Source: a virus (lineage: Duplodnaviria; Caudoviricetes). Taken from it: 52,270 bases of DNA. The position numbers and the translations under genes are program-made. The notes under the pieces are model-generated. The model saw nothing but the letters and a program-made list of their open reading frames with translations. It was not told the origin of the DNA and ran no database searches. The first letter of the stretch is position 1. The number at the start of each line of letters is the position of its first letter. Shown one piece after another: positions 26,324-51,798 of the stretch. Location of the stretch: positions 1 to 52,270 of IMG/VR virus record IMGVR_UViG_3300027246_000005. One strand, given 5' to 3'.

Positions 26324-26338
26324 TCGTTTTTGTTGTGT

Positions 26339-26599
26339 TTAATCTCCTGCCATTATGACAAGAGCTTTGAGTTTCATTAATGTGTCACACTTCTCATACT
26401 CTTCTAGAGTTTCAAAGTATTCAATTAGTAATTCTATAAATTTGGAGCGTTCTCCCATGCTGTGCGGTATTTCAATAAGATCCTTTCCTTCTTGGAACAC
26501 AACGAAACGATTCACTGTTTTCGTGAAATTGCGGGTGAGAGTGTAGTAGCTTGCTCTCATCACGTTGTCTTTTTCTCGGCTTGAAATATTATTACTCAT
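26339..26599 (-). CDS. Small protein with C-terminal UVR-like motif (paralog 1)
   Basis: EYFETLEEYEKCDTLMKLK. Confidence 0.7.
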   Translation of the reverse strand: MSNNISSREKDNVMRASYYTLTRNFTKTVNRFVVFQEGKDLIEIPHSMGERSKFIELLIEYFETLEEYEKCDTLMKLKALVIMAGD

Positions 26600-26671
26600 T
26601 CGCAGGTAAAAATCTTTTTATACATTATATATTTACCGGATACTCCGGAATGTTAACTATATTAACGTATT

Positions 26672-26869
26672 CTATGATTCTTTTTCTGCATTTGTCCTAA
26701 GGGATTGGACATAAGATGCTTTACGAAACTCATCTCTTTTCTCTACTGATTTCTTAGTAAATTGTTGACGATCTTGCAAGTTTTTTATTTGTTTTGTTTT
26801 AATAACTTTGCGTTTATACTGTTTTAACGCTTGTTCTATATTTCCGTTTTTAACTTCTATTATTAACAT
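26672..26869 (-). CDS. rpsU: Ribosomal protein bS21 (Bacteroidota type)
   Basis: [22 protein letters not shown]...QFTKKSVEKR...KASYVQ matches bS21, including the Bacteroidota C-terminal KAxYxQ. Confidence 0.9.
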   Translation of the reverse strand: MLIIEVKNGNIEQALKQYKRKVIKTKQIKNLQDRQQFTKKSVEKRDEFRKASYVQSLRTNAEKES

Positions 26870-27120
26870 GCTTCTAATTCTTTTATTATTTTTTTAAGTT
26901 CTAAACACTTCTCATATTCCTCCTTGGCCTCAAACCAGTTTATAATAAAAGTTATTGCTTCAATTTTTTGTTCTAGTGTCGAAGAACTTTTAAGTGCATC
27001 TTGTGTTTTATTAACGATAGCATCATATACCATGTCCATCATTTTCTCTCGTGACGCTTTTTTAATACTATTAAAAAAACTAAAACCATCGTCATCTAAA
27101 GGTAAATCATCTTCTGTCAT
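26863..27120 (-). CDS. Small protein with C-terminal UVR-like motif (paralog 2)
   Basis: [19 protein letters not shown]. Confidence 0.7.
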
Positions 27121-27923
27121 TCCAATTCTTTAATTTTTTTAACTAAGTCCAACTGTGCTTCTGTTAGACCATGAAAATTAGCATGTACTTTAACCATTAG
27201 ATTTCCATACTCATTGTTCTTACTGTTATATATTGGCATTCCTTTTCCTGGAATTCTCAATACTCTACCAGATGCTGTTTTGGCTGGAACGTCTATTTTA
27301 TATTTGCCAAATGGAATTTCTACTTCAATATTGGCTCCTAAAATTAAATCATAAAAATGAAGGTATGCATCTACCCATATATCGCTTCCTTGTAGAATTA
27401 ACGAATCATCTGGATTAATATTAATATTGATAATAAGGTCTCCCCGTTGAGCGTTACTATTAAACCTATTGTAATCTCCTCGACCGTATACTTTCAATAC
27501 CATTCCATTATGTATACCTTTTCCAAAATCTACTCTAACCGAATCATGGCCAAAATCAAAAGTTTTAGTACATCCATTATAAGCTTCTGCTATCGTAAAT
27601 GTTGCTCTAACAGTAACATCTGCTCCTTTAGATTCTTTTCTTGTTCCGAAATTTTTGTCAAAGTCTCCAGACCAATTACCATATTGGTTAAATATGTCCT
27701 GAAAATTAAACTCTTTAAAGGTAGATTTTCCGTCATATAGATCACGCTTAGCTTGATCAGATAATGTTTCGTACGCAGTTTGGATCTGTTGAAATTTATC
27801 AGTAGCTCCTGGATTATTTAAATTCCGGTCTGGATGGTGGAGTTTTGCAAGATTTCGGTAAGCCGATTTAATCTCTTCCTGTGTTGCTGTCTTTTGGACT
27901 CCTAATACTTGATAATAATTCAT
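27117..27923 (-). CDS. dnaJ: DnaJ/CbpA-type co-chaperone (J domain plus C-terminal domain, no zinc finger)
   Basis: MNYYQVLGV...HHPDRN (HPD motif)...GDL...LRIPGKGMP...GNLMV; start re-assigned to 27923. Confidence 0.92.
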
Positions 27924-28059
27924 GTTTGTCTTTATTAAGCTGTCCTTTTCGCATTTCAATTATACTCTTCTTGTGGTCGCGTTCAATAACGTCAGCGATT
28001 CGCTTCAGTTGGGCCGTGAGTGCAGCCATCGCTTCTAATAATTTTGGTTCTGTTGCCAT
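27868..28059 (-). CDS. Hypothetical protein
   Basis: 63 aa ORF with an AT-rich leader; its 3' end overlaps the dnaJ start. Confidence 0.45.
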
Positions 28060-28103
28060 AATTTTCTTATTTAAAATATATGTATCTCATAAAAAAAGGA
28101 AGC

Positions 28104-28415
28104 TTATGCCTCCTTTAGTTCTTCGAGATACGATTGTATAGTTTTACATTTCTCGTATTCTTCAGTTTTAACAAACCAGTCTAACATAAAAGATAGTGTA
28201 TCTTTTAGTTGATTAGCGTTTAAGTTAGTTAATTTCATTTGTCGAACGTCAATTCCTTGCGTTTCAATTGATTTGAAATTAGCTCTAACCAGTTGGTCGA
28301 TCACATCATAGTAAGTTGCTTTTACTTCGTTCGCTTGCATAATCTGTGTTATTTCGTCTTGTTCAGTTTCTTCGTTGAAATTATCTTCGAAGTCGTTATA
28401 ATCATTTTCGTACAT
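28104..28415 (-). CDS. Small protein with C-terminal UVR-like motif (paralog 3)
   Basis: DWFVKTEEYEKCKTIQSYL; acidic N-terminus. Confidence 0.7.
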   Translation of the reverse strand: MYENDYNDFEDNFNEETEQDEITQIMQANEVKATYYDVIDQLVRANFKSIETQGIDVRQMKLTNLNANQLKDTLSFMLDWFVKTEEYEKCKTIQSYLEELKEA

Positions 28416-28436
28416 AGTATTTATTTTGATTTTATA

Positions 28437-28498
28437 ATGTAAATATAAACAATATTTTTCAAACGGTAAAACTTTTGTTCAAAAAGTTATTAACAATT
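28437..28498 (-). promoter_or_regulatory. Repeated early-type promoter, copy 4, with upstream TGTTAATAAC box
   Basis: 59/62 identical to 23772-23833. Confidence 0.7.
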
Positions 28499-29229
28499 TA
28501 CGCAGACCTAATCGGTTGCATATTGGCAAACTTTAAAACTAAACTACCGGCAGCTTCAATATCTTCTTCGCAATAGTTTTTGATCTCTTCTATTTTACCA
28601 GCATAGAATGCAGCTCCGACTTCTCCAGCCTGCATGTCGTCTTTAGGATTCTTAATTCCCAATAATAGACATATATGAGCTAGTGCAGCACTTGACCATC
28701 CACCAGCTTTCCATACTTCGTATGTGTCTACTAGACAGTTTTCCCAAGGTTTCATTTTGTGTAAGTGTAATTGTCTTGGTAATTCAATACCATGTAGAAT
28801 AGATTTCTTAATGATATATGGTAGATCGAATCCTTTAATATTGTGCCCGACTATTTTAATACCTGGTGCTTTAAAGAATACTTGACTCATAAAGTTTGCG
28901 AAGCTGCTTAGGATGTCTCTCTCGTCTTCGCCGTAGAAAGATTTCTTTTGCATGTATGGATCTTCAGTTACCTCGTCAAATTTAACCTGACCAACTGAGA
29001 TACAAACTATTCTACCCCATTCTGGAGATAGAGCGGCTTTTTGAAAATAGATTTCCTCGTCAGAAGATTCTCTAAGTTCAACATCTTCAGCTTTAATAAA
29101 TTTAGCCTTACGCTCCCAGAAGCTCATGAGTTCGGGATGTGTTTCTTTTAATTCTCCAAATGTTTTAAAACCTGAAGTAGTTTCAATGTCAATGAAGAGC
29201 ATCGATTTAATTTCTTCTTTTGTATACAT
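28498..29229 (-). CDS. 3'-5' exonuclease (DnaQ/PolB-exo-like, stand-alone)
   Basis: FIDIETT (ExoI), VGHNIKGFDLPY (ExoII), YCEED (ExoIII). Confidence 0.9.
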   Translation of the reverse strand: MYTKEEIKSMLFIDIETTSGFKTFGELKETHPELMSFWERKAKFIKAEDVELRESSDEEIYFQKAALSPEWGRIVCISVGQVKFDEVTEDPYMQKKSFYGEDERDILSSFANFMSQVFFKAPGIKIVGHNIKGFDLPYIIKKSILHGIELPRQLHLHKMKPWENCLVDTYEVWKAGGWSSAALAHICLLLGIKNPKDDMQAGEVGAAFYAGKIEEIKNYCEEDIEAAGSLVLKFANMQPIRSA

Positions 29230-29504
29230 TATTTTACGATTTTAATTTGTGGAATTTCTTTGATAATATCAAAGATTGAGCAAGGATAAATCCAGTAAGG
29301 GCGTCCTAATTTAGCAGCATCTGCTGGAGAAGCTGGAACGGAAAATGAATACCATTTAACGCCATAAGATTTTGTTAAACCTGCGTTCTCTCCTATTAAA
29401 GTTCCATGGTACGTTGATATTTTAGCCCATACAAACTCGTACATTTTACCTACTTTAGGATTTTTAACGTTAATTACCTGAATTTCTTTTGGTTTTCTAG
29501 CCAT
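29229..29504 (-). CDS. Hypothetical protein (start MARKPKE at 29504)
   Basis: The ORF-track start at 29564 would read through the repeated promoter; the ATG at 29504 follows it. Confidence 0.6.
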   Translation of the reverse strand: MARKPKEIQVINVKNPKVGKMYEFVWAKISTYHGTLIGENAGLTKSYGVKWYSFSVPASPADAAKLGRPYWIYPCSIFDIIKEIPQIKIVK

Positions 29505-29511
29505 ATCTAAT

Positions 29512-29533
29512 TTGTTATATGTAAATATAAACA
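29512..29533 (-). promoter_or_regulatory. Repeated early-type promoter, copy 5
   Basis: Exact 22-bp core TGTTTATATTTACATATAACAA. Confidence 0.7.
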
Positions 29534-29574
29534 AAATAATCGACATAAAAAAATATTTATGCAATTACTTTCAA

Positions 29575-29601
29575 ATTATATGAAAAAAAGGAAGATTGTT
29601 T
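29575..29601 (-). promoter_or_regulatory. Putative middle-class promoter AAAC-N17-TATAAT
   Basis: Exact spacing; upstream of the exonuclease operon. Confidence 0.5.
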
Positions 29602-29839
29602 ACTCGTTGGACTCGAAAGGATCGGCCCATGTTTTAACCGAACGGACCTTAGTATATTGGTCGTAGGTTAAATGTATTCCAATATAGCCACCTGAAATAG
29701 AATAAGGGGCGTCAGATTCGGAAAACCAGTAAGGTGGTGGAGTATCAATTCTATCATTCAAGAAATCAAATAACTCATCGACTAGCATGTGATGGATATA
29801 AATTGTAAGAACCATGCATTTGTTATTCGGATAACCCAT
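29600..29839 (-). CDS. Hypothetical protein
   Basis: 79 aa ORF abutting the ATP-grasp gene. Confidence 0.55.
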   Translation of the reverse strand: MGYPNNKCMVLTIYIHHMLVDELFDFLNDRIDTPPPYWFSESDAPYSISGGYIGIHLTYDQYTKVRSVKTWADPFESNE

Positions 29840-30784
29840 TTACTTTTCTAATTTCCAGATAGGATTTTGTTTTGTATTCTGTGCAGAATCTTCTGCTTTA
29901 AATTTCTTTAATAGATCTATTGTCTCTTGACTTAATTCAGTTTCATAATAGTCTTCATAGATTCTTTTATACAATTCAGTCATAATACCGAATAAGGCGC
30001 CAGGTTCTGAATTCATTTCAAAGACATAAACTTTACCGTCTTTGGTTTCAGCCATGTCTATTGCATAAAAATCTAAATCAGAATGCATATCTGAAAAATA
30101 TCGACAGGCTTTAATATGAGAATCTTTTATGTTCTTAATATCCTTACAGATATAAGAGAAATTAGTTTCTTTTTCTGGATCTTTTTTAGCAATATCGGCT
30201 GTTTCGTCATCCATTGGAATTCTCTGTGCCCATTGAATAAGTTCTCCTCTCCATAACCAGTATCGGTGCTCTTCTTTAATTGAAATCTTTTCAGAGAAAG
30301 ATGTAAATTTACTAAGGTCTGCATTTTCAAACTCTTTAGCATCTTTAAATACTGTAATACCTAAACCACTATGCTCGTTATCGGGTTTTGCTACGACTGG
30401 GAATGTAAGTTTATCAACATCCTCTGCACTTGTTACAGTAGGAATGATGTATTCACTATCAACATGCAACTTATAGAATTCTGATTTCGATGAAACACTT
30501 TCACGAGCTTCTGGGTGGTTGTAGATTTGAGTATGCTGAATTGCTCCAGCTTCCATAAACTTTTCTAGAGTTTTTCTATCGTAGTTTAAAACAGGCATGC
30601 TTTTAGGGTAATCAATAGGATCCATGTCCATTGTGATAACTGCCCAATATTCAGAAGTATGATACTCTGGTCCGGTAATAAAAGAATCGTCGAGATCCTT
30701 TCTTCGAGTGATACACACTTTCTTGAAATCATCCACGACGATTGCTTCGTTTACAAATTGTTCAAATGTTAATAGAGATTTCAT
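29840..30784 (-). CDS. ATP-grasp (RimK-like) ligase with capsid-targeting-like N-terminus
   Basis: SKSEFY, FPVVAKPDNEHSGLGI, EHRYW, FYAIDM, VFEMNSEPG ATP-grasp motifs; N-terminus MKSLLTFEQFVNE. Confidence 0.8.
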   Translation of the reverse strand: MKSLLTFEQFVNEAIVVDDFKKVCITRRKDLDDSFITGPEYHTSEYWAVITMDMDPIDYPKSMPVLNYDRKTLEKFMEAGAIQHTQIYNHPEARESVSSKSEFYKLHVDSEYIIPTVTSAEDVDKLTFPVVAKPDNEHSGLGITVFKDAKEFENADLSKFTSFSEKISIKEEHRYWLWRGELIQWAQRIPMDDETADIAKKDPEKETNFSYICKDIKNIKDSHIKACRYFSDMHSDLDFYAIDMAETKDGKVYVFEMNSEPGALFGIMTELYKRIYEDYYETELSQETIDLLKKFKAEDSAQNTKQNPIWKLEK

Positions 30785-30801
30785 ACTCTATATATTATAT
30801 T

Positions 30802-31401
30802 TTATTTGTAGTGCTGACCACCTAACCAAAGAACGAAAGATTTTCTTGTTCCTTTAGTAACAGGCTTTACTCTATGCATCAAATAAGATGGAAATACTAC
30901 AACGTTACCTTTTCCACGAGGTGCTTGACGAATCCATTCTCCACCTCCCCATAATTCTAAGTCTCCGCCTTCGTATTCAGTATCGTCAGATAATTGAACA
31001 GTGATTGATACTTTTCTACGGGAAGCTATTCCATTTCCAATATCCTGGTGCCATGCATAATGACCGCCTTCGGCTGCATAATATTCAGTATATTGAATAG
31101 ATTCAGGAGCAGAATACAAATCAAAACCCCATAGGGCTGTATTTGCTTCTGTCGACATTGCTGTTAATTTGTCATACAGCCAACTCCATTCTTGAGATTG
31201 AGGAATCCATTTGATATTAGAGCTTCTAACTTTTTTATCAGTAGATGATGTATCTGCACCGATAGTTGTTGCTTTTTCAAAAGGAAGATTTCCAACTTCT
31301 CTAGAAATTTTATCTAATTCTTCTGCTGTAAATCCTTTATCAAACCAATAGTAGTTTTGTGGATCGTTTTCCGGTTGTACGAAAATGTTTTGAAAGTTCA
31401 T
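30802..31401 (-). CDS. 2OG-Fe(II) oxygenase (prolyl-hydroxylase/PKHD-like)
   Basis: WHQD (HxD), RKVSITVQLS, YEGGDL, FPSYLMHRVKPVTKGTRKSFVLW. Confidence 0.9.
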   Translation of the reverse strand: MNFQNIFVQPENDPQNYYWFDKGFTAEELDKISREVGNLPFEKATTIGADTSSTDKKVRSSNIKWIPQSQEWSWLYDKLTAMSTEANTALWGFDLYSAPESIQYTEYYAAEGGHYAWHQDIGNGIASRRKVSITVQLSDDTEYEGGDLELWGGGEWIRQAPRGKGNVVVFPSYLMHRVKPVTKGTRKSFVLWLGGQHYK

Positions 31402-31404
31402 ATG

Positions 31405-32067
31405 TTATTTATTTTTGTTTATTAATGCGTTAATCTCTTGATCCCAGAATGCGTGCTCTTGTTGCATATGATCTGATTCAAAACTCTTACTAGTAGCTGA
31501 TATTTCTCCGGGTGTTTTAAGTCCTTCGATCCAATATATCTTTCGATGATTCATGTCTTTATTATAAAAGTACAAATAATCATCGCCAAAAAAGACTTTA
31601 AAAATATCTGGTATTGCGACATAATTTTCTTTTTTAAGAATCATCATACAGCCAAATCCAAATGGTCTATTATCTAATTCAACTAATTGTAATTTGTCAG
31701 AATCAGAATTATAATCATCTACATTAAAATTACGCTTATACAATCCAATCATTCCAAAATTAGGATCAACTTCTACCAGTTTTTTAAAATTATTCAGTAA
31801 ACAATTTATGTTTAAAGAAATGTCGTCATTGAGAAGACATATATAATTATTCTTGGTTAGAGTAGCTCCAATATTCCATGCTGGATTTACAAAGATATTA
31901 TTTTTTACTTTAATAACCGTAATTCTAGGATCCTTATCTTTAAAATCTGAATTAGCGTTATCGATGATAATCAGCTCAATATCCTTTCTATCGGATAATT
32001 TAAACGATTCAATAGTATCTTTAATCCTGTTGGACTTCCAAAGGGTTGGAATTACAAATGTTATCAT
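31405..32067 (-). CDS. Glycosyltransferase family 2
   Basis: FVIPT...LIIIDNA...VNPAWNIG...LLNDD...FFGDD. Confidence 0.85.
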   Translation of the reverse strand: MITFVIPTLWKSNRIKDTIESFKLSDRKDIELIIIDNANSDFKDKDPRITVIKVKNNIFVNPAWNIGATLTKNNYICLLNDDISLNINCLLNNFKKLVEVDPNFGMIGLYKRNFNVDDYNSDSDKLQLVELDNRPFGFGCMMILKKENYVAIPDIFKVFFGDDYLYFYNKDMNHRKIYWIEGLKTPGEISATSKSFESDHMQQEHAFWDQEINALINKNK

Positions 32068-33908
32068 AATTGATAGATTTCGTTTACATATCCTTCGTCT
32101 TCTCCAAATTTACTAGGAGTTCCAATCGGATCATTTGGATTCTCTTCGTATGCCCAATCTTTCTGTCCTAATTCTTCGAATCTAGATTTAATTTGCTCGT
32201 TATAGTGCCACATGATTGTTTTAACTCGGCGTTGAATATCTGCTCTTGCTAAGTTATGAGAATTAGTCGTGTTACCATTATCATATATAAATTGAAGGTA
32301 GCCTAATCGAGGTATTCTCATCATCTTGGTTTTCAAGAATGTTCTAACGATTAATTCATAATCATCTGCGATTGCAAGGTCTCTACAGTGTCCGCCTATT
32401 TCGAAATAGGTTTCTCTTCTCCATGCTCGAACGTGATTTGGAACTCCAACAATATGTCTAATCGTTTTAGGATTAATGTTAGAAGATACTGCAACTTCGA
32501 AATCTTTACCCATTACATTTTCTGTAACGTAATGTCCATAACTAAATGCAAATCCTTCTCCATATTTTAGTGAATTCCAGTTTTGATCAATTTCAGCAGA
32601 GTCAGTATAAAAGAATCCTACATCTTCGTGTTTTTGAGAAGCATTAAATAAATCTTCAGTACAAGTCGGCACCAAATAATCATCATGGTCTAACTCGGCT
32701 AGAATATAACCTCTACACATGGTAGCTGCTCTCCATTTAACTTCTCCAATTATACCACCACTTTTCGGTGTAAAATCAAATAGTTTAACACGAGGATCTC
32801 TTTTTGCAATTTCTTGTGCAATCTTTATAGTTGCTCCTCCGTCAGTCGAATCGTTTACAAGAACCCATTCCCAATCGGTATATGTTTGTCTAGTAAGAGA
32901 TTCGTAAGTCATCCATAGTTTCTCTCCAGTATTGTAAATTGGAGTAAAATAAGAAATGAGTTTACTAACATCGTTTACTAACATAGCACTCATTGCGCAA
33001 TGATAACCCTTTTCGCCAGCATCTACGTCTCCTTCAATTAAATTAATCCATATTTTACGAAATTCACCAGGTGCATTCCATAAATTTTGTAGTTGAGATG
33101 GATCTTCATAGGTACTAACAATTGCAATTGGTTTTACCCTTGCGATATCAGCATAAATATTAGAATCGTCTTCGATATATTCGACTTCAAGTTCTTTAGA
33201 TTCCCAATTTACAAAGTTATTTGTTTTTAAATCTGGACGATCCTTGCCAATATAGAGTATTTTTGGGAATTTAGCCTTTGAAGGTTTTTGTAGCGCGTTG
33301 TAATAAGCTAAAATCTTGTCTATGAATAAGAATCCGTCTGGGTTCTTTTGATAAACAACTTCAATAAATTTACCATCAGCATCATAACCACCTTTAAAAT
33401 CAAAGTCATTAAAAACTGATCGATTAAGAATAAACTGGGCCAAGTCAATTGACCTAACTTTCATATTCTCAGGTTTAGCATATCTAACATCGCATCCAGT
33501 AAAATCTTTACCGTCTACTTGTTGATTAAAAACTATTCCAATCGATTTTTCTGCTTCGGCAAATCCCACAAGAGCTTCAAAATTATCGAATAACTTTTCA
33601 TGTAGAATATTGTCATCGTCTAGCGAATAGATCCAACCATCTGATATGTTATCAATGATAACTTTATTCATTTGAGGATATAGGTAATCTCCGCCTTGAG
33701 AGAATTCAAAATAAATCTTGGCTCCAAATTGTTGTAATTTACCAAGAATTTCAGCATCGATATCCTTTAATCTAGTCGAATCAAAAATTACATGCCATTC
33801 AACTTGTAATTTACCATCTTTAGCCGGAAGAGATTCTCCAACGGCAAGGATGTTATTTAATCTGCTACATCTTGTAATTACGTGTAGCTTTCGGGAATTG
33901 TCTATCAT
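32064..33908 (-). CDS. Two-domain glycosyltransferase (GT-A + GT2)
   Basis: N-terminal YSLDDDN...ADG domain; C-terminal FTPIYN...LVNDSTD...ELDHDD...ADDYEL domain. Confidence 0.85.
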   Translation of the reverse strand: MIDNSRKLHVITRCSRLNNILAVGESLPAKDGKLQVEWHVIFDSTRLKDIDAEILGKLQQFGAKIYFEFSQGGDYLYPQMNKVIIDNISDGWIYSLDDDNILHEKLFDNFEALVGFAEAEKSIGIVFNQQVDGKDFTGCDVRYAKPENMKVRSIDLAQFILNRSVFNDFDFKGGYDADGKFIEVVYQKNPDGFLFIDKILAYYNALQKPSKAKFPKILYIGKDRPDLKTNNFVNWESKELEVEYIEDDSNIYADIARVKPIAIVSTYEDPSQLQNLWNAPGEFRKIWINLIEGDVDAGEKGYHCAMSAMLVNDVSKLISYFTPIYNTGEKLWMTYESLTRQTYTDWEWVLVNDSTDGGATIKIAQEIAKRDPRVKLFDFTPKSGGIIGEVKWRAATMCRGYILAELDHDDYLVPTCTEDLFNASQKHEDVGFFYTDSAEIDQNWNSLKYGEGFAFSYGHYVTENVMGKDFEVAVSSNINPKTIRHIVGVPNHVRAWRRETYFEIGGHCRDLAIADDYELIVRTFLKTKMMRIPRLGYLQFIYDNGNTTNSHNLARADIQRRVKTIMWHYNEQIKSRFEELGQKDWAYEENPNDPIGTPSKFGEDEGYVNEIYQL

Positions 33909-33912
33909 ATTA

Positions 33913-34836
33913 TTATATTACGTCAAAGAAAAACATGTGAAAGAATCTAGCATTTTCAATTGCATCTCCAAAATATTTACTAGGAGCATGAATTTGTTTA
34001 GCATCGAATAGAACTAAACGATTGTATACGTTTCCAACTTCATCAATTTTTTCAAATTGTGTCGAGTCATAGAAATTCATTGCAGCATTCTTGCCTCTAA
34101 ATGTAGTTTCGTATGCTTCTTGGTCTTCGAAATTATCGAATCTTTTTCGACCAGTATTTTTACTAGAATAGAACGAAGTACCTGTTTCGAATGGAGCGTC
34201 TTTAGTTAAGAATACCATTCCAGCATACATTTGACTATCAACGTGAAATACTAATGGATCATTTGCTACGCAATATTGGAATACTCCGTTTGCATAACTT
34301 TCATAATTCCAGTTTGTAATTTCACGACCAATTATCTTTTCTAATTTCTCTTTAGTACCATCTAAAACGAAACGTGTTTTACTTCTTTTACCTTTATGAT
34401 AATCAGAAGGGTTGTATTCTAGATTTCTCATTGCGAAATCTCTGACAAAATCAGGATCCGCGTAGAAGTCATCAACTACGATTAATCCTTTGTCTTCATT
34501 ACAGAATCCAGAGTAATAAGCAATAAAATTGTCAATGCTTCCTGGATTATAGGTAAGTTCTCCAAAGTTAACTTGGATATTTGCACCTTTTGGAATATTA
34601 AAAGAAACTCCAACCTGATCATCTTTACCAGGATAAATTTCGGTAACATCTGGTCGACTAATAACTTCTAATGGTATTTCTATATCATTGACTATCAATG
34701 AACTAACAGGTTTAAAGAGATCACCATCCTTGACAGCTATCCAACCTGTTACATTGTAATTATTATCTGATACTTTTGTAATTGAATCAAAGTGCCAGAA
34801 AACATTCTGGTCTTTCGTGAAATGGTTGTAAATCAT
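33913..34836 (-). CDS. 2OG-Fe(II) oxygenase-like protein (DUF6445-like) with extra N-terminal domain
   Basis: IVVDDFYADPD...FHVD (HxD)...GTSFY...NRLVLFD...IHA...RFFHMFFFD. Confidence 0.75.
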   Translation of the reverse strand: MIYNHFTKDQNVFWHFDSITKVSDNNYNVTGWIAVKDGDLFKPVSSLIVNDIEIPLEVISRPDVTEIYPGKDDQVGVSFNIPKGANIQVNFGELTYNPGSIDNFIAYYSGFCNEDKGLIVVDDFYADPDFVRDFAMRNLEYNPSDYHKGKRSKTRFVLDGTKEKLEKIIGREITNWNYESYANGVFQYCVANDPLVFHVDSQMYAGMVFLTKDAPFETGTSFYSSKNTGRKRFDNFEDQEAYETTFRGKNAAMNFYDSTQFEKIDEVGNVYNRLVLFDAKQIHAPSKYFGDAIENARFFHMFFFDVI

Positions 34837-34849
34837 AAGTGTGTTTGTT

Positions 34850-34876
34850 ATTATATCGTATTAATTGATTAAGTTT
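34850..34876 (-). promoter_or_regulatory. Putative middle-class promoter AAAC-N17-TATAAT
   Basis: AAACTT-N15-TATAAT just upstream of the ATG at 34836. Confidence 0.55.
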
Positions 34877-35900
34877 ATCTTCTCTTTTTATCGAAGTTTA
34901 TATATGTATCGGGATTTACTGTGAGCCCATCGGCAATATCCATCATTCCTTTAATTATCTCTTCCTTTGATGCTCCCTTGTCGACAAGTTCAACAATTAC
35001 CTGCTCGTAATATTGATTGTGTTTCTCGAGATCGGTAAACTTCCAATTTTTAGGACAGCATCCACAGAAGTATTGTTCAAGTTTAATGTAACCATACTTA
35101 CATTCAAATTCTGAACCTTTAAATCCGCATGGTTTTAGAGTATCGTAATATGAATCCCAGTCTAGTTTAAATGGCCAATGTTCGTCATGGACAAAGGTAC
35201 CCCATTTCATAAACGCTGATTTGAGTTGAAATCCTTCAGCCTCTTTTTCAATTTCAGCTCGACCCCAATTAGGATTCCCCTTTATTTCAACAGCATCTCC
35301 ATTATCATCAAAGAATTCAGAGAGTGGAAGGATTCCAGTTTCGTAAAATCTTTTGTTTCGACGAATAACAGGATTGTTAGTATATTCCTTTTTTGATAGG
35401 ATCCAATAGTTAATTGATTTGTAGTTTTTCTCTTCTAGTAGAATATCTTCTTTAAGCCAATATGAATACCCAAATTGACGATCATCAGTATCATTTAAGT
35501 ATCTACGAAGAACCATTTGGTCTAAATCAGAATCTTCCATACATTCAACAAGTTCATCTATCCAGTTTGGTGAGAGTCCGCTGATTTTCTGAGGTAAACA
35601 AGTCCAATCTCCTTCTAAGAATAAAACGTATTCATAATTCTCGACCAGTTCATTAAGTCGATTAATTCCAGCGCCGACTCCTAAATTCTTTTCAGAAAGT
35701 TCTAGGTGCCACGTGATATTAGAGTACTGATTAAATAATCTTTCAGTCACTTCTAACAATTCATCATTATATGAATTCAAGAATATGTACCAATCTCCTT
35801 CAAAATCAGGATTAGCGTCTGTGAAAGAAGAGATTGTTCTTTCTAGATACTCTGCTCGATACTGAGCGTCATGTGAAAGGGTTGCGATACAGAATTTCAT
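34875..35900 (-). CDS. Glycosyltransferase (GT-A-like) with Cys-containing C-terminal extension
   Basis: NLGVGAGIN...YVLFLEGDW...YTNNP pattern of GT2-like enzymes. Confidence 0.7.
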   Translation of the reverse strand: MKFCIATLSHDAQYRAEYLERTISSFTDANPDFEGDWYIFLNSYNDELLEVTERLFNQYSNITWHLELSEKNLGVGAGINRLNELVENYEYVLFLEGDWTCLPQKISGLSPNWIDELVECMEDSDLDQMVLRRYLNDTDDRQFGYSYWLKEDILLEEKNYKSINYWILSKKEYTNNPVIRRNKRFYETGILPLSEFFDDNGDAVEIKGNPNWGRAEIEKEAEGFQLKSAFMKWGTFVHDEHWPFKLDWDSYYDTLKPCGFKGSEFECKYGYIKLEQYFCGCCPKNWKFTDLEKHNQYYEQVIVELVDKGASKEEIIKGMMDIADGLTVNPDTYINFDKKRR

Positions 35901-35939
35901 AATCTTATATTATTATACTACATTCTATATATTAAGAAA

Positions 35940-35957
35940 AACCGGCAAGTACCGGTT
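35940..35957 (-). terminator. Probable terminator hairpin
   Basis: Gene strand AACCGG-TACTTG-CCGGTT followed by TTTCTT. Confidence 0.5.
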
Positions 35958-36007
35958 GAAAACGACCCGAGAGCAGTTCTAATGGTATGCTACTCGGGTA
36001 CTGTTTA

Positions 36008-37123
36008 TTAAGATTCGAATCCAGGTAATTTTTCAGCAGGATTATGCGTAATTAAACCATTCGCAATATAAGTATCGGTATTTTCAACGTCCATTGAATA
36101 TACAATCTTTGCGTCTTCTCCTTGTAAAACATCAATTGAAGTTATTTCAATACTGCTTCCATCCTTGTCAACTAGGAAATCTCCAACTTGAATATTCTTT
36201 GATTGTTCAAAAAACCAATCATTTCCTCTTTTAATAAAATGAGCATGCGATTCAGAAGTTTCAATTAAACCGTTATTAAAGTTATGAATTCTTTGAGATC
36301 TAAGAGGACGGATACCAACTACTTTAACTTCAGTTTCTACCAGGTTTAAAGTATCAGTTGACCATCCAACAATTGTATCGTCTTCGGGCGCATCGCTGAT
36401 TTTCATGCCTTTTAAAAGGTCTCCAATTCTGATTTTTTCAATTAACTTAAAGGTTCCGTCGGCCATTTCAATACTAGTTCCTTTAACCGGACATCCTTGT
36501 TGACAACTTGCACCAGTTTGAGTCCCACCGTAGAACAATGACTGTAAACACCTATACTCGCCGTATGAGTAGCCGCTCACATTACCTCCTTGACAGTTAG
36601 TACCGGACCAGTACTCATATCCATCTAAATAAAAGTCGTAGCATTCCTCCGGCGGTGGCGGAGGAGGCTCGTAATTGAACACTGCTCCTAAATAGTAAGT
36701 ATCTTCCCAACCTGGAGTTGGTACATAATAACTAACATTTGCGTTGTATGCCCAAATTTCGTATGGATCAGTTCTCATCCAATACGCAAATCCATAATTC
36801 GCATTGGCGATTGCATTTAAAGTTACCCACACATCACTATTAGATGTAACCGCAAAGTTCTGTGGCGGATAAATAGAACCTGCAGTATATCCACTTGACC
36901 AAGGCGCAGTTACAGCAACCTGTCCAGCACCAGCATCAACAGCAAGCGTCCAACATCTGGTATTAATCCAACTATTTGTTGCGAATGCCATGTTTCCGGT
37001 ACCTGCGTATCCAGCAAACTTGCCTCTTATGCTAGAAGCTGTTGTAAATCCACCATTTCCGCATTCTATAATCGATCTTAGTGTAGAAAGCGCATATCCT
37101 CCAACTGAAACTAATTTACCCAT
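36008..37123 (-). CDS. Fibre-associated protein with C-terminal Hint (intein-like) autoprocessing domain
   Basis: Cys211 CPVKGTSIEMADGT...IEKIRIGD...VYSMDVENTDTYIANGLITHN (Asn361), followed by Pro and a 10-aa tail. Confidence 0.85.
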   Translation of the reverse strand: MGKLVSVGGYALSTLRSIIECGNGGFTTASSIRGKFAGYAGTGNMAFATNSWINTRCWTLAVDAGAGQVAVTAPWSSGYTAGSIYPPQNFAVTSNSDVWVTLNAIANANYGFAYWMRTDPYEIWAYNANVSYYVPTPGWEDTYYLGAVFNYEPPPPPPEECYDFYLDGYEYWSGTNCQGGNVSGYSYGEYRCLQSLFYGGTQTGASCQQGCPVKGTSIEMADGTFKLIEKIRIGDLLKGMKISDAPEDDTIVGWSTDTLNLVETEVKVVGIRPLRSQRIHNFNNGLIETSESHAHFIKRGNDWFFEQSKNIQVGDFLVDKDGSSIEITSIDVLQGEDAKIVYSMDVENTDTYIANGLITHNPAEKLPGFES

Positions 37124-37890: not shown

Positions 37891-37891
37891 A

Positions 37892-41887
<3,996 letters not shown>

Positions 41888-41963
41888 GTTTTATAAATAT
41901 GATTAAGTTTATAAGATTGTTGAATCTATTCTATATATTAAGTTAAAAATAGGAATCTAAGTC

Positions 41964-43142: not shown

Positions 43143-43180
43143 TCTTATTTACTATTATTTAGTTATATTTATTCATAAAA

Positions 43181-43204
43181 AAAGAGAGCCTTTCGGCTCT
43201 CTTT
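43181..43204 (-). terminator. Rho-independent terminator
   Basis: Gene strand AAAGAGAGCC-GAAA-GGCTCTCTTT-TTTT, downstream of 43229..45049. Confidence 0.9.
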
Positions 43205-43228
43205 AGTTTAAAGTTATTATAATTCTAG

Positions 43229-45049: not shown

Positions 45050-45169
45050 ATGTTTTTAAATTTGTTTGGTCCCAGTTCATAATTGATCTGGATGATTTAT
45101 ATATTATTAAAGCTCCTATATATTAGAAGATTCTTCAATATTATAGTAATAATTTTGCACTAAAATGTA

Positions 45170-46609: not shown

Positions 46610-46661
46610 TTTTGTCTGTTTATTGTTTTTATCTTGTTTATATATCTGGAATACTAACTAC

Positions 46662-47357
46662 TCAAGTGTTAGTTTTAAGATAATTGAATAATTTATATCG
46701 AGTAATTGGTAAGAGGCATGTTTCTAGAGGAAAAGCTTTCTTAATATCTGCTCTGATATGTATTCTACTAGGCTCGTTTATGCCTACTATGGTTACAAAA
46801 TCAGATATTTTTTCGATAGAGTAATCATCTTCATCTTTAAATAATTCAAATTTGAAATCTTTCCAATTTGTTAAAATCGAACCCGGTTTAATAAAACTAT
46901 AGATCCTGTATTTCTTATCATTAGTGCATAGTATTAAATACCCGTTAACATAGACTCTCTTCTGCTCGGGTATTTGAGTAAAATTAATAAACTTTTCAGT
47001 ATCTCTCCATTTAGCTCGAATGTCTTTGTATATTTTTTCAAAGAAAACCGTTGCATCCTCGGAAATACTTATTATAGTATTAATTTCATCAGTGTTCGCA
47101 TTGTTGTATTCGTATTGAAGAGACATTGTATCGATATCAATGCCCTTGAGAGTTCTTAATCTAGAAGTAATTTCGTCGATTTTGTACTTGAATTTGTAGA
47201 GATAGTCTAGATGGAATTCAACTTCATCTAGAACAGGAAAGATGTCACCATCCTTTATTAACGACTGATATTTATTAGCCGCTGAAAGAAGCTTATACTT
47301 CTTAAATTCGTAATCTATTGGTTGTGAAGTAAGCCAATCATCATCCAGTATCTCCAT
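46662..47357 (-). CDS. Hypothetical protein
   Basis: 231 aa ORF with DWLTSQPIDYEFKKYKLL N-terminal motif. Confidence 0.7.
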   Translation of the reverse strand: MEILDDDWLTSQPIDYEFKKYKLLSAANKYQSLIKDGDIFPVLDEVEFHLDYLYKFKYKIDEITSRLRTLKGIDIDTMSLQYEYNNANTDEINTIISISEDATVFFEKIYKDIRAKWRDTEKFINFTQIPEQKRVYVNGYLILCTNDKKYRIYSFIKPGSILTNWKDFKFELFKDEDDYSIEKISDFVTIVGINEPSRIHIRADIKKAFPLETCLLPITRYKLFNYLKTNT

Positions 47358-47388
47358 GTTGTATGTATCACGGAGATGCTAGTAAATG

Positions 47389-47703
47389 TTAATTCTTTTT
47401 CTTAATTTTAACCGGTTCAGAATTCTTTTTAGAAGGAGAAATATATTCGGTAGATGATGTAGTTAATCCCCATTGCAGAATAAACCAGCTAGCCTCCATT
47501 TCGGCCAGTTTCTTAGTTAATCCTAATTCTTTGCTAATTCTGGTAACACAATATTCAGTGAATTTCTTTTGTTCTTCTGGTGTTGTCTGAAAATTCATAT
47601 ACCAATTTGGCATATCTACAACCTGTTCGTAAGTTTTGCCGAATGGTTCTAGTTGTTTATTGATTAATTCAATAAAAAGTTTGCGTTGTCTGTCTCTGCT
47701 CAT
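47389..47703 (-). CDS. Hypothetical protein
   Basis: 104 aa ORF, ATGA-coupled. Confidence 0.65.
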   Translation of the reverse strand: MSRDRQRKLFIELINKQLEPFGKTYEQVVDMPNWYMNFQTTPEEQKKFTEYCVTRISKELGLTKKLAEMEASWFILQWGLTTSSTEYISPSKKNSEPVKIKKKN

Positions 47704-47906
47704 AGCTCGATAATTTCATTTAATAATCCTCGGTCGGTTAAGGCGATAAATTCATTTGAAGACATAGATACTTGAACACATCCTTTAGCAGGAATATTTT
47801 GATATGTGATAGAGTCTTGCTCATCTGAATCAAGAGACCATACAATATCAAGAATTCTTTTTAAGTACTCTACTTTGTCTGATTCGATGTAAATATGTAC
47901 ATTCAT
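47700..47906 (-). CDS. Hypothetical protein
   Basis: 68 aa ORF coupled to the clpP stop; similar in layout to 29600..29839. Confidence 0.55.
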   Translation of the reverse strand: MNVHIYIESDKVEYLKRILDIVWSLDSDEQDSITYQNIPAKGCVQVSMSSNEFIALTDRGLLNEIIEL

Positions 47907-48589
47907 TATTTTTTATTATTTTTTACAATAAAATCGATAATACCATATTCTAAAGCCTGATTAGCATCTAACCATAAATCTCTTTCGGCATCTTTTTTAA
48001 CTTGTTCTGGATCTTTACCGCAATATTCTCCTAGTAAACCAAATAATACATCGTTTACTTTGATCCATTCTTTCCAGTCAATTGCAGCATCTTGAATATT
48101 TCCACTGAAACCTCCAGAAGATTGGTGTAGCATTGTTGTACTGAATCTTAAAGAAGACCTTTTACCTTTAGTACCAGCTCCTAATAAGATTGATCCCATT
48201 GAAGCGGCCATTCCAGTGTTTACGGTTTTGATATCGCTCTTAATGTAATCCATTACATCCACCATTGATAATCCGGATTTACAGCTTCCACCACCAGAAT
48301 CAATATGCATTGTAATATCGTCGTTGTTTACTGAATCCAGAAACATCAACTGAGCCTGTACGATGGTTGACATATTATCGTTAACTTCTCCAGCTACCCA
48401 TAATAATCGATCCATCATTAATCTAGAGAAAATGTCCATTTGACTAACTCTTAATTCTCTCTCTTCTAGAATATACGGTGTCAAAGATCCTTGAACCTGT
48501 TTACCGTAGTAATCTAATTTTAAAGATGAGATGTTATGCTCAGATTTGGCATATCTATTAAATTCTTTGTCTTTGCTGTAGTAATTCAT
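47906..48589 (-). CDS. clpP: ATP-dependent Clp protease proteolytic subunit
   Basis: LTPYILEERE...MDIFSRLMMDR (Bacteroidota-like N-terminus); catalytic AASMG, MLHQ and ERDLW motifs. Confidence 0.95.
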   Translation of the reverse strand: MNYYSKDKEFNRYAKSEHNISSLKLDYYGKQVQGSLTPYILEERELRVSQMDIFSRLMMDRLLWVAGEVNDNMSTIVQAQLMFLDSVNNDDITMHIDSGGGSCKSGLSMVDVMDYIKSDIKTVNTGMAASMGSILLGAGTKGKRSSLRFSTTMLHQSSGGFSGNIQDAAIDWKEWIKVNDVLFGLLGEYCGKDPEQVKKDAERDLWLDANQALEYGIIDFIVKNNKK

Positions 48590-48897
48590 AATTGTTCTAG
48601 TATTTCTTTAATAATTTTACAAGTTTCGTATTCTTCTATTTCTAAAAAATAGGCGTGTGCTTTGTTTAATGATTTTTTCCAGTTTTCTTTTTCTAAACTA
48701 ATATCGTATTTACTTCCGTTATCGTCTTCGAACTGACATAATATATTATGCTTAATTGTACCATCTAATGTGTTTAAAACATGCGAGACTATTTGTCTAT
48801 TTAGCGTGTCTTCTCCTTCTCTTTCGAGATAATTACTAAGTAACTTATTGGAATGATTCCGCCCTAGCATTATCTTTATTATTGGTACTTTTTTCAT
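48586..48897 (-). CDS. Small protein with C-terminal UVR-like motif (paralog 4), coupled to clpP
   Basis: AYFLEIEEYETCKIIKEIL; its TGA overlaps the clpP ATG. Confidence 0.7.
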   Translation of the reverse strand: MKKVPIIKIMLGRNHSNKLLSNYLEREGEDTLNRQIVSHVLNTLDGTIKHNILCQFEDDNGSKYDISLEKENWKKSLNKAHAYFLEIEEYETCKIIKEILEQL

Positions 48898-49753
48898 TAA
48901 TGGTTACGTTTAAGTATTTAGATAAAACGGCTAGATATTCTATATTTTTAGAATTTTCATTGGTAGAGATCGCATCGATTTCGTCAATGTAATCGTTACC
49001 AATTTCAGTTAGTGTAAAATTATTAAAATCATCGACGTAGAATAATGGTTTTGTAAGCTCCATGGAATATTGCTTATCTGCTTTTCCATTTTCTAAAATC
49101 TGATCAGACAATTCAAAATGTCTTTCGTAATAATGGATATTATCGGCAAAATGAACATACTCTCCAATCTCTAAAGTTGGATATGTTTCTTTTAACCAAA
49201 GAAGCATGTGTTGATGTACCACTGCAAAGAAAGGAGCGTCAAATGTAAGACCATAGAAAATATCGTTAGATCGCATTTGAACTTTCATATTCAATTTATT
49301 ATCTCTAATAAAAAAGTTAAGGTACATTGTACAAACAAAATCTTTATTACCTTCAAATTGATATTTTGGCTGATTCAAGAATGCAATTGCTTGACGAGTA
49401 TTTATGTCAGCTTTTAAACTATCTAAGCACCATTTAAGTTGAGGTCCGAATAATAAGGCTCCGTAGTTTGAATTAATTTCATTTGTACCAGGATTTGTAA
49501 TACCTTTCCAGAAATTAGAGAACTTATTAATGTAATCGATATCACAGTCTTTTTTAAGATACCATGCTACTTCTCCAGCAAAATATTTCCAGTTAAAAGC
49601 TCTGTCTTTAAATGATGCAAATGGCTGAATAGAATCTACTGAGTATTGACCATATATTAATTCACGAACTTTTAAACTTCTCGGCTGAGATTCCGAACCG
49701 TTTTTATTAATGTCTTCGATTATATCGATAAACGTGTTTGAAAAATTACTCAT
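48845..49753 (-). CDS. Thymidylate-synthase-fold enzyme, probably dCMP hydroxymethyltransferase (T4 gp42-like)
   Basis: DFVCTMYLNFFIRDNKLNMKVQMRSNDIFYGLTFD: catalytic Cys, with Asp at the position where ThyA has Asn (LGxPFN). Confidence 0.75.
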   Translation of the reverse strand: MSNFSNTFIDIIEDINKNGSESQPRSLKVRELIYGQYSVDSIQPFASFKDRAFNWKYFAGEVAWYLKKDCDIDYINKFSNFWKGITNPGTNEINSNYGALLFGPQLKWCLDSLKADINTRQAIAFLNQPKYQFEGNKDFVCTMYLNFFIRDNKLNMKVQMRSNDIFYGLTFDAPFFAVVHQHMLLWLKETYPTLEIGEYVHFADNIHYYERHFELSDQILENGKADKQYSMELTKPLFYVDDFNNFTLTEIGNDYIDEIDAISTNENSKNIEYLAVLSKYLNVTINEKSTNNKDNARAESFQ

Positions 49754-49770
49754 TGTTTTTAATTATAAAG

Positions 49771-49797
49771 GTTATACACTTATTTCAAAGAAAGTTT
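49771..49797 (-). promoter_or_regulatory. Putative middle-class promoter AAAC-N17-TATAAC
   Basis: AAACTT-N15-TATAAC just upstream of the ATG at 49753. Confidence 0.5.
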
Positions 49798-51798
49798 AAT
49801 CGCATCTTTTTCGTGATTGACGGTATAAAAGAACTCTGTTGAAGGAGTTATTGTCTTATCAATGATTGAATCTGCCAATAAGTCTTCTACAAAATGCTGG
49901 ATAGCTCGTTTAATTGGTCTTGCTCCGTATGCAATATCATAACCTTCTTTAACCAAGAATAATTTAGCTGATTTTGTAAATTTAATAGTCATTCCCTGAT
50001 CTAATAATCTTTCAGCAACTTCTGCTAATTCAAGTTCTACAATCTTAAGAATAGATTCTTCAGATAATTGCTCAAATAAAATCATATCATCTAATCTATT
50101 TAAGAATTCTGGTGGGAACTTGTTCTTTAATTCTTTCCTGATCACCGATTCCATTTTAGCCTTTTGACTAGATATTGAGCCGTCTGTAAAACCAATACCT
50201 ACTCCAAATTCAGCAAATTTACGGGCACCAATATTAGAAGTCATAATGATAATTGTATTTGTAAAATCAATTGTTCTACCTAAAGAATCAGTTAACCTAC
50301 CATCATCTAAAACCTGCAATAGGGTATTAAAAATATCTGGATGCGCTTTTTCAATCTCATCAAATAATACTACTGAATATGGTTTTCTACGAACTTGCTC
50401 GGTTAATTGACCGCCTTCTTCGTATCCAACATATCCCGGAGGAGCTCCAACTAGGCGAGAAACTGTAAATTTCTCAGAGTATTCGCTCATATCAATTCTA
50501 ATCAAATTATCTTCTGAACCAAAATAATATTCGGTAAGTGCTTTTACTGTTTCAGTTTTACCAACTCCAGTTGGACCAATAAACATAAATGAACCGATTG
50601 GTTTCTTAGCTGAAGATACTCCAGTTCTAGAACGCTTAATAACTCTACATAAAGAATCTACCGCTCCACTCTGACCAATTATAATTTTATTTAATTCTTT
50701 ATTCATTCCTACAATCATCTTACTCTCATCTCCACTTAGACGAGTTACCGGAATTCCAGTAATTTCAGCAATTGTCCCGGCAACATCTTGATCAGTAACA
50801 CGTCTACGTTTATCTCGTAAACTCTTTTCCCAATCTTTTAATTTAGCCTCGATTTCTTTTCTTTTACCAAGTTCAGCATCTCTAAAATTTGCAGCTGCTT
50901 CATAATCTTGTTTACTAACAGCTTCGTGTTTTTGTTTTCCAAATTCATCAGCTTCATCTTCCATCTTTTTAACATAAGGAGGAACGTTAATTTCTAGCAA
51001 ATGTATTTTAGAACCAACTTCGTCCATTATATCAATAGCCTTGTCTGGTAATTCTCGTTGTGTGATATATCTTTCAGATAACTTTACGCAAGCTTCAATA
51101 GCTTCAGGTGTATAAGTTACCGAATGGTGATCTTCGTATTTCTCTTTAATCTTGTTTAAGATTTCAATTGCTTCGTCTATTGAAGGTGGATCAATGAAAA
51201 CTTCTTGAAAACGACGAGTTAGAGCTCCATCCTCTTCAATATGTTCTCTGTATTCGTCGGTTGTTGTAGCGCCAATACAATGAACTTGTCCTCGTGCAAG
51301 AGCAGGTTTTAGAATATTAGAAGCATCTAAAGATCCAGAAGAACCTCCAGCGCCGATCAAAGTATGAATCTCATCAATGAATACAATAACGTCCTGATTT
51401 GACTTAAGTTCTTCAACAATCATTTTCATTCTCTCTTCAAACTCTCCACGATATTTGGTACCGGCTACAATTGTGGTTAGGTTAAGAGAGATAATTTTCT
51501 TATTTAATAGGGTACGCGCAACTTTCTTTTCGACTATGCGCTGAGCAATTGCTTCAACGATTGCAGTTTTACCAACTCCTGGATCTCCTAGGATAATTGG
51601 ATTATTTTTCTTTCGACGAGAAAGAATTTGGCAAACTCGATGAACTTCTTTTTCTCTACCAATAATTGGATCTAATTTACCTTCAGCTGCTAACTGTGTT
51701 AAATCTTCTCCAAATTGATCTAGGAATGGAGTTCTACCTTTTCCACCTTTTTTGGGACTAGTCCCTGTACTATTTATATCTTCTATATTATCCATCAT
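49780..51798 (-). CDS. clpC: ClpC-type AAA+ unfoldase lacking the N-terminal domain
   Basis: Two AAA modules ([14 protein letters not shown] and [15 protein letters not shown]), UVR-type M-domain [15 protein letters not shown], ClpP-docking GIGF loop; AAA-1 begins about 25 residues from the start. Confidence 0.93.

Follow-up and report, generated by a model that had tools for sequence, protein, structure and literature searches.

The window analysed here, which is the entire 52,270 bp of the IMG/VR viral record IMGVR_UViG_3300027246_000005, carries four small genes (M48586, M28104, M26863 and M26339) whose products share the motif [YW]F-x3-EEYE[KT]C close to their C-termini. The explanation that best accommodates the data, to which we give a probability of about 40%, is that these four open reading frames (ORFs) belong to a large, phage-restricted family of acidic proteins that end in a divergent docking hairpin of the UVR type and have accessory roles in proteostasis and translation operons. 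The first-pass annotation of this DNA had instead proposed a dedicated phage ClpCP protease served by a set of plug-in adaptors. The observation of the four motif ORFs is real and far beyond chance; a tie between the family as a whole and phage ClpCP is not supported, the family occurring mostly in phages without Clp genes, and judged from sequence a ClpCP adaptor role is a possibility for the single copy adjoining clpP, M48586.

The Four Motif Genes and Their Junctions

All four ORFs were confirmed, each on the minus strand, and in a six-frame translation of the window the string EEYE-x-C occurs four times, every time near the C-terminus of a motif ORF. A chance origin of the motif was considered and rejected because the motif is conserved across hundreds of protein clusters (see below). 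M48586 is overlapped by thyA over 53 nucleotides (nt) and its stop overlaps the start of clpP by 4 nt, in keeping with the translational coupling to clpP that had been described. Likewise two motif ORFs do flank bS21 beside dnaJ, with M26863 between dnaJ and bS21, its start overlapping the dnaJ stop by 4 nt and the gene overlapping bS21 by 7 nt, and M26339 between bS21 and phoH with a 72-nt spacer upstream. M28104 has an 82-nt spacer upstream and a terminator-like hairpin (28095–28116) at its stop, and looks like a separate transcription unit; its product is strongly acidic, with a net charge of −13 and an isoelectric point (pI) of 4.19. The four genes had also been assigned to early, middle and late promoter classes. 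Two of the four have no upstream spacer, and a scan for sigma-70-type promoters returned 23 sites with 17.4 ± 4.2 expected.

The estimated genome coverage of the record is ~18% (CheckV), from which it is taken to be a fragment of a jumbo-phage genome. Searching viral contigs with ClpC gave 80 loci, 21 of which (L005–L024 and L031) form the clade of the window, with ClpC 66–85% identical. The order LOG-clpC-thyA-motif ORF-clpP is found in all 21 clade loci, the M48586 orthologue abutting or overlapping clpP in 14 and lying ~0.87 kb from it in the other seven; homologues of the downstream ORFs o47389 and o46662 were matched in most of these loci, not all. No motif ORF was present in the fetched flanks of the 59 more distant ClpC loci.

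Five large related records have three to four family copies each, positioned as in the window in two conserved orders, exo/M28104/dnaJ-(M26863)-bS21/M26339-phoH and clpC-thyA-M48586-clpP. Orthologues of M26863 are found in four of these five records, this type being absent from the related 256-kb genome G001, which has terminal repeats and is rated 100% complete. Orthologues of M28104 are present in related contigs, and M26339 is the best-conserved paralogue with orthologues 68–82% identical. In a quick tree of 160 members each paralogue group forms one side of a branch (support 91, 95, 100 and 74), and on these phylogenetic grounds the four ORFs are regarded as old paralogues at fixed positions in one jumbo-phage clade.

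A Large Unnamed Family of Phage Proteins

When 1.84 billion representative proteins were searched with a profile made from 28 clade sequences, 925 clusters (50% identity) matched at E ≤ 1e-3, 24 of them at E ≤ 1e-10. Among the best 150 of the 925 clusters, members are mostly of 60–125 residues with the motif at the C-terminus, and a few of 216–256 residues (P0117, P0119, P0129, P0147 and P0149) likewise have the hairpin domain at the C-terminus. The N-terminal part of the long members gave just a weak DUF3846-like match (E 0.021, P0149). The Cys is the sole invariant column, present in 143/143 aligned members, and relative to it Glu at −5 is conserved in 98%, Tyr at −3 in 94% and Glu at −2 in 99%, with hydrophobic positions at −16, −13/−12, −10/−9, +3, +6 and +10. 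The resulting signature is [YFWH][FY]-x3-E-E-Y-E-[KTR]-C-x2-[IL]. The family is acidic, with a median pI of 4.68 and a pI below 6 in 87% of members.

Stricter, composition-corrected BLAST clustering divided the N-terminal parts of 147 members into 55 clusters and placed the window copies in four different ones. A single cluster holding 129 of the 147 members, obtained by single-linkage clustering without composition correction, was discarded as an artefact. The N-termini of the four window proteins had been called unrelated, and indeed there is no pairwise BLAST match among the four; the term is nonetheless overstated, since the matches of the family profile to many relatives span almost the whole profile, and the two proteins that were modelled, M48586 and M26339, share the order of their structural elements. 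The combination of a near-invariant Glu-Glu-Tyr-Glu-x-Cys hairpin with a rapidly diverging remainder is the pattern expected of a shared docking or chemical module joined to a variable specificity part.

No family in Pfam, PHROG or NCBIfam matches the four ORFs at a meaningful E-value, and a profile search of PDB sequences gave as its best match a cytidylyltransferase at E 0.1, which is not significant. That protein is PDB 6oew, matched over the strand-plus-helix part of the family profile; M48586 on its own matches phrog_10630, also a cytidylyltransferase, at a non-significant E of 0.25. Among 50,697 deposited phage records, tblastn with M26339 found nothing at E ≤ 0.1 and blastn with positions 26000–29000 of the window found no match, and a full-text literature search for the motif string found no paper. 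The nearest ESM Atlas clusters are viral hypothetical proteins throughout, and as far as these searches show the family appears to be confined to phages.

Predicted Fold

Confident AlphaFold models of M48586 and M26339 were obtained from family alignments. The M48586 model (predicted local distance difference test, pLDDT, 86.9; predicted template modelling score, pTM, 0.77) comprises a strand (residues 6–8), a helix (26–44), two strands (52–57 and 63–67) and two helices (70–86 and 90–102), the last two forming a C-terminal hairpin encoded at ~48592–48690 with pLDDT of 91–97 in its helices. The M26339 model (pLDDT 84.6, pTM 0.68) has helices at 7–23 and 25–30, strands at 33–37 and 40–43 and helices at 50–64 and 68–83, with the hairpin at ~26351–26452 and pLDDT of 80–92 in the hairpin helices. 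Common to both is the order helix, beta-hairpin, helical hairpin, from which the N-termini, at least those of M48586 and M26339, would be diverged versions of one small domain. In both hairpins the turn is of three residues, with Glu-Glu in or at the turn and Tyr-Glu-x-Cys opening the last helix.

Foldseek searches of the PDB with both models gave no significant match (best E 0.45 and 2.0), and no UvrB or ClpC hairpin was among the PDB matches listed. In BFVD four proteins matched at E ≤ 1e-3, all uncharacterised and from uncultured phages, with template modelling scores of 0.65–0.70. A tetratricopeptide repeat (TPR) fold, named beforehand as evidence against the UVR idea, was found neither in the sequences nor in the models: none of the four ORFs matches TPR models, weak matches were seen in 2 of 143 relatives, and in the models the beta-hairpin leads into one helical hairpin without any repetition of it. 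The TPR reading is therefore rejected.

Likeness of the Hairpin to UVR

The UVR motif is an antiparallel two-helix hairpin in the structures of UvrB and ClpC, and both AlphaFold models end in a two-helix hairpin. For comparison at the profile level, 19 genuine UVR domains were taken from UvrB-, UvrC-, ClpC- and McsA-sized proteins of five bacterial genomes, and the 15 that passed an extraction filter (four were dropped) were made into a UVR profile, which in a positive control finds the ClpC M-domain at E 5e-10. When 115 family hairpins were aligned with these 15 domains by hhalign the match ran without a gap over 34/34 columns, with a score of 18.06, an E-value of 1.9e-4 and a probability of 47.6%. 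Column-shuffled controls scored 6.2 ± 1.6 (maximum 13.4) and 133 natural 44-column windows of ClpC scored 7.15 ± 1.62, with 0/150 and 0/133, respectively, reaching 18.06; the six best ClpC windows (11.2–11.7) every one overlap the M-domain.

In this register the conserved family Tyr lies on the UVR aromatic and the family Phe on a small UVR residue six positions upstream of that aromatic. The Cys, said by the first-pass annotation to stand in place of the usual UVR Ala, does so invariantly, lying on the first Ala of an Ala-Ala pair. The Ala-Ala-x-x-Arg-Asp of genuine UVR segments is not found in the family, which has Cys-[Ala/Ser]-x-[Ile/Leu]-Lys-Lys. Two weak leads come from elsewhere: at E ≤ 1 the Pfam UVR model matches 4 of 143 family members, the best at 7.9e-4, and UVR is present in 32% and 13% of the members of two nearby ESM Atlas clusters (scores 0.83 and 0.84).

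The further claim that the motif aligns with the M-domain of the ClpC of this phage holds in so far as the best local match in the whole ClpC alignment falls at residues 290–312, within a comparison that lacks significance (P 0.28). The family hairpin likewise gave no significant match to the M-domains of 60 viral ClpCs, with probabilities of 0.2–0.9% and, at 0.9%, an alignment of 10 columns. As to the UVR motif itself, the in-register profile match and the modelled hairpins speak for it, and the absence of the Arg-Asp pair and scores below the Pfam cut-off speak against it. It is plausible on this comparison of profiles that the hairpin is a divergent UVR-type hairpin, which is not to say proven.

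The Phage ClpC

By Pfam the window ClpC has AAA, AAA_lid_9, AAA_2, ClpB_D2-small and UVR, with no match to Clp_N, and it aligns to phrog_4871 (the phage ClpC profile) from profile position 166 onward; from these two results the N-domain is taken to be absent, as had been proposed. Compared with a full ClpC-type class I AAA+ protein, which has two AAA+ modules, a UVR M-domain and Clp_N, it thus lacks the last. Such truncation is common in viral contigs: when it is called from a first Walker A within ~110 residues of the ORF start, the N-domain is missing from 29 of the 60 distinct ClpC ORFs fetched, 12 of these 29 lying outside the window clade. The closest cellular ClpCs are 54–57% identical to that of the window, and a likely host is among the Bacteroidota. 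The UVR motif of the M-domain lies at 50878–50937 (residues 288–307), and within it lies Tyr299, conserved without exception in 15 clade sequences and aligned with Phe436, at the tip of the M-domain, in the deposited record of a Staphylococcus-type ClpC.

In Staphylococcus aureus, ClpC without the N-domain is described as having raised ATPase activity and no proteolysis, proteolysis appearing once F436A at the M-domain tip also breaks the M-domain contacts (PMC12583610). In Mycobacterium tuberculosis, ClpS is reported to act on ClpC1 via the middle domain with no need for the N-domain (PMC6274998), and Gp53 of phage SPO1 is presented as modulating host ClpC in the manner of an adaptor (PMC6873191). 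Since the N-domain-less S. aureus ClpC needs broken M-domain contacts and Tyr299 aligns with Phe436, an activator directed at the M-domain of the truncated phage ClpC is by analogy a reasonable idea, for which M48586 would be the sole positional candidate.

Distribution of the Family Relative to Clp Genes

A degenerate DNA pattern for F-x3-EEYEKC identified at least 120 viral stretches, of which 80 (L103–L182) were analysed and 79 contained a family ORF by hidden Markov model (HMM). ClpC was present in 5 of the 80 motif-bearing records (4/50 and 1/30) and a ClpP-like gene in 3 of the 50 tested. Five records were at least 90% complete, and four of these (56–120 kb) have neither ClpC nor ClpP and one family copy each; the fifth, a provirus-flagged record of 508 kb, does encode ClpC, at a distance of over 400 kb from the two family copies that it carries. 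In the reverse test the family was found in 2 of 19 ClpC-bearing records outside the clade and was absent from both complete ones (299 and 369 kb), and outside the clade no motif ORF was found in the fetched flanks of 12 N-domain-less and 31 full-length viral ClpC loci.

The 139 immediate neighbour proteins of family ORFs include five each of PhoH, DnaJ_C and SNase and four each of DnaJ and bS21, and of the 59 families found the 25 listed include no Clp family. The PhoH, DnaJ and bS21 of the window have BLAST matches in just 5–6 of the 80 loci, from which most of the neighbour matches to these three are inferred to come from clade relatives. In the distant phage G024, whose ClpC is N-domain-less and 53% identical, the family ORF (L121 7353–7649) overlaps the end of dnaJ, and what separates clpC from clpP is a 127-residue ORF (L073 9930–10310) unrelated to the family.

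A dedicated system of phage ClpCP with its own adaptors had been expected to show co-occurrence of the motif HMM with ClpC across phages. This is seen in the 21/21 clade loci and does not extend to the family. A motif equally common in phages without Clp genes had been named in advance as the outcome that would speak against such a system, and most of the phages with the family do lack these genes, with ClpC missing from four of the five near-complete records.

Proposed Role of the Family

As single-domain proteins of ~80–120 residues, family members would use the hairpin as a protein–protein docking or pairing surface, by analogy with the UVR hairpins of UvrB/UvrC and of ClpC M-domains, and the fast-evolving N-terminal half would set what else is bound. 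Viewed in this way the family would be a general phage tool and not a component of phage ClpCP. In the window clade four copies have become fixed inside two operons for proteostasis and translation, where the overlapping stops and starts would lead to co-translation of three of them with DnaJ, bS21 or ClpP; given such co-translation the copies here probably serve those machines as small subunits in an accessory or regulatory capacity, and M48586 is the single candidate for regulating the N-domain-less ClpC.

Several observations weigh against this interpretation. The UVR profile match is borderline, with a probability of 48%, and single hairpins score ~0–4 bits with the UVR profile; any amphipathic hairpin can also beat the column-shuffle control. 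With Pfam UVR (PF02151; cut-off 21.5 bits) none of the four ORFs is found even at E ≤ 10, the six-frame search of the window at this threshold returning the ClpC M-domain alone (23.2 bits). The hairpin belongs to a compact domain (pTM 0.77) and may for that reason have a hydrophobic face that is buried and not free to pair. A 100% invariant Cys exceeds what docking needs and hints at metal, redox or covalent chemistry. Across diverse phages the immediate neighbours have no common theme.

Alternative Explanations

In the model of the first-pass annotation the paralogues dock through the hairpin on the M-domain of phage or host ClpC and, through their variable N-termini, deliver different substrates for staged and programmable degradation. 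We consider this unlikely. It draws on the constant place of the M48586 orthologue between clpC and clpP in the clade, on a UVR-like hairpin whose best match within ClpC is the M-domain, on a phage ClpC without the usual adaptor-binding N-domain and on the precedents described for SPO1 Gp53 (PMC6873191) and for ClpS on ClpC1 (PMC6274998). However, the distribution of the family, with ClpC in 5/80 motif-bearing records, the family in 2/19 ClpC-bearing records and a motif ORF at 0/12 N-domain-less loci, runs counter to it. Three of the four copies lie by dnaJ, bS21 and phoH, ~20 kb from clpC, in seven of the 21 clade loci the M48586 orthologue stands ~0.87 kb away from clpP, and G024 has its family member at dnaJ and not between clpC and clpP. 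The staging by promoters that it invokes is without checkable basis.

A second proposal, which we also hold to be improbable, is activation by mimicry, in which M48586 and perhaps the other copies imitate the aromatic tip of the ClpC M-domain, compete with the contacts between M-domains that keep ClpC at rest and so switch on N-domain-less ClpC without delivering substrates. The S. aureus protein described above, proteolytic after F436A and otherwise not (PMC12583610), argues in its favour, as do Tyr299, which keeps an aromatic at the Phe436 position in all 15 clade sequences, and the family Tyr that the alignment of profiles places on the UVR aromatic. The distribution data count against it to the same effect as for adaptors, the hairpin may be packed within the small domain, and a role for Tyr299 in a resting state of ClpC is an assumption.

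The invariant Cys raises a third idea, that a site for metal or a thiol switch, possibly shared between the two halves of a dimer, is built from the Cys and the near-invariant Glu residues that open the last helix, and that the resemblance to UVR is convergent. A buried position in a helix would accommodate Ala, Ser or Gly, yet all 143 members have Cys, accompanied by the 98–99% conserved Glu at −5 and −2, and weak local matches to bacterioferritin helices were obtained (31 columns, root-mean-square deviation 0.3 Å, E 2.5). Those matches are not significant, there is a single conserved Cys and no conserved His, and convergence poorly explains an in-register match to UVR over 34 columns. Such a metal or redox protein is distinctly unlikely.

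These elements can be combined in a bolder proposal, that the whole family consists of UVR-hairpin mimics docking on the aromatic tips of ClpC M-domains, those of the phage here and of the host elsewhere, and releasing the resting unfoldase, which the N-terminal half then re-aims, with the Cys as a redox or metal switch. The odds are long, and were it true, UVR-hairpin mimics would be a general viral strategy to take over AAA+ proteolysis.

It is highly improbable that the family is a decoy for host UVR contacts other than ClpC, for example the UvrB–UvrC pairing of nucleotide excision repair, that protects modified phage DNA. In favour of a decoy, the mixed UVR profile scores 18.06 against at most 11.7 for the ClpC M-domain alone, many phages without Clp genes carry the family and M48586 overlaps a thymidylate-synthase-like gene; against it, Lys-Lys replaces the Arg-Asp of genuine UVR and the neighbouring genes show no repair theme.

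Genomic Context

The window has a GC content of 34.8%, and every ORF assigned to a gene is on the minus strand (Table 1); tRNA and Rfam scans of the window returned nothing.

Table 1. Motif genes and neighbouring genes of the two operons in the window.
Feature	Position	Strand	Evidence
M48586, family member, 103 residues, between thyA and clpP	48586..48897	−	ORF and motif
M28104, family member, 103 residues, between 3'-5' exonuclease-like gene and dnaJ	28104..28415	−	ORF and motif
M26863, family member, 85 residues, between dnaJ and bS21, overlapping both	26863..27120	−	ORF and motif
M26339, family member, 86 residues, between bS21 and phoH	26339..26599	−	ORF and motif
ClpC-type double-ring AAA+ unfoldase, 672 residues, without N-domain	49780..51798	−	Pfam AAA_2, AAA_lid_9, ClpB_D2-small
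ClpP proteolytic subunit, 227 residues	47906..48589	−	PF00574 1.1e-52; NCBIfam ClpP models to 4.7e-66
Thymidylate-synthase-like gene (thyA), between clpC and M48586	48845..49753	−	PF00303 3e-20; position clade-conserved
DnaJ-like co-chaperone, J domain and DnaJ C-terminal domain	27117..27959	−	PF00226 6e-27, PF01556 5.5e-29
Phage ribosomal protein bS21, 65 residues	26672..26869	−	PF01165 4.5e-11; phrog_21469
PhoH-like ATPase, 15 nt downstream of M26339	25628..26323	−	PF02562 1.7e-64

Although dnaJ is listed as starting at a TTG, its true start is probably the ATG 12 codons downstream, where the J domain sets in; this start would widen the spacer after M28104 to ~180 nt. The PF00303 match of the thyA-like gene is moderate, and our guess is that it may encode a pyrimidine hydroxymethylase instead of ThyA, implying modified DNA. 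Directly upstream of clpC, at 51829–52263 (−), is a LOG or "possible lysine decarboxylase" gene (PF03641, 2.5e-30), a homologue of which occupies this place in most clade loci with a fetched upstream flank. The region that separates the two motif clusters, 29840–37123 (−), encodes an ATP-grasp R2K_3 protein, a family 2 glycosyltransferase, DUF6445 and DUF2827, with a weak, sub-threshold intein-splicing match at 36008–37123. A probable tail fibre of 1331 residues (37892–41887, −) combines 11 stretches of collagen triple-helix repeats (E 4e-124) with a Peptidase_S74 intramolecular chaperone domain at its C-terminus.

Comparison with Known Systems

In bacteria the genes of Clp adaptors adjoin those of their ATPases, as in clpS-clpA and mcsA-mcsB-clpC. 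M48586 resembles these in that it is small, lies within a clpC...clpP cluster and is translationally coupled to clpP, and differs in that its family has no sequence relation to the named adaptor families and in that the linkage to clpP is confined to one phage clade. The closest phage precedent is SPO1 Gp53, likewise a small phage protein and an example of how a phage can re-tune ClpCP; at 25 kDa and with ClpC binding shown experimentally, Gp53 as described (PMC6873191) stands apart from the window family. According to the S. aureus study the truncated ClpC is proteolytically inactive alone (PMC12583610), and M48586 with the phage ClpC and ClpP is therefore a small and directly testable system.

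Compared with UVR (PF02151), the family hairpin is likewise of two helices and ~35 residues, opens its second helix with an aromatic and then Glu, with small residues three and four positions on, and keeps an equal hydrophobic register over 34 columns. It differs in the invariant Cys at the position of the first Ala, in Lys-Lys for Arg-Asp and in Phe for a small residue six before the aromatic; it also ends a compact alpha/beta domain, whereas UVR is an appendage of a large enzyme. The same predicted fold is seen over ~101 columns in the four uncultured Caudovirales proteins of BFVD (A0A6J5PRW3, A0A6J5MJE5, A0A6J5MA40 and A0A6J5Q6E6; E 1e-4 to 8e-4), which on the evidence of the models are probably members of the family and are themselves without a name or known function.

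At least 925 clusters are thus without a Pfam, PHROG or NCBIfam name and without a relative of known structure, and one clade of jumbo phages has placed members of this family inside the operons for its DnaJ, a ribosomal protein and an N-domain-less ClpC with ClpP. Set beside these known systems, what is new is the family itself, a widespread and unnamed fold of small phage proteins ending in a UVR-like hairpin with an invariant Cys.

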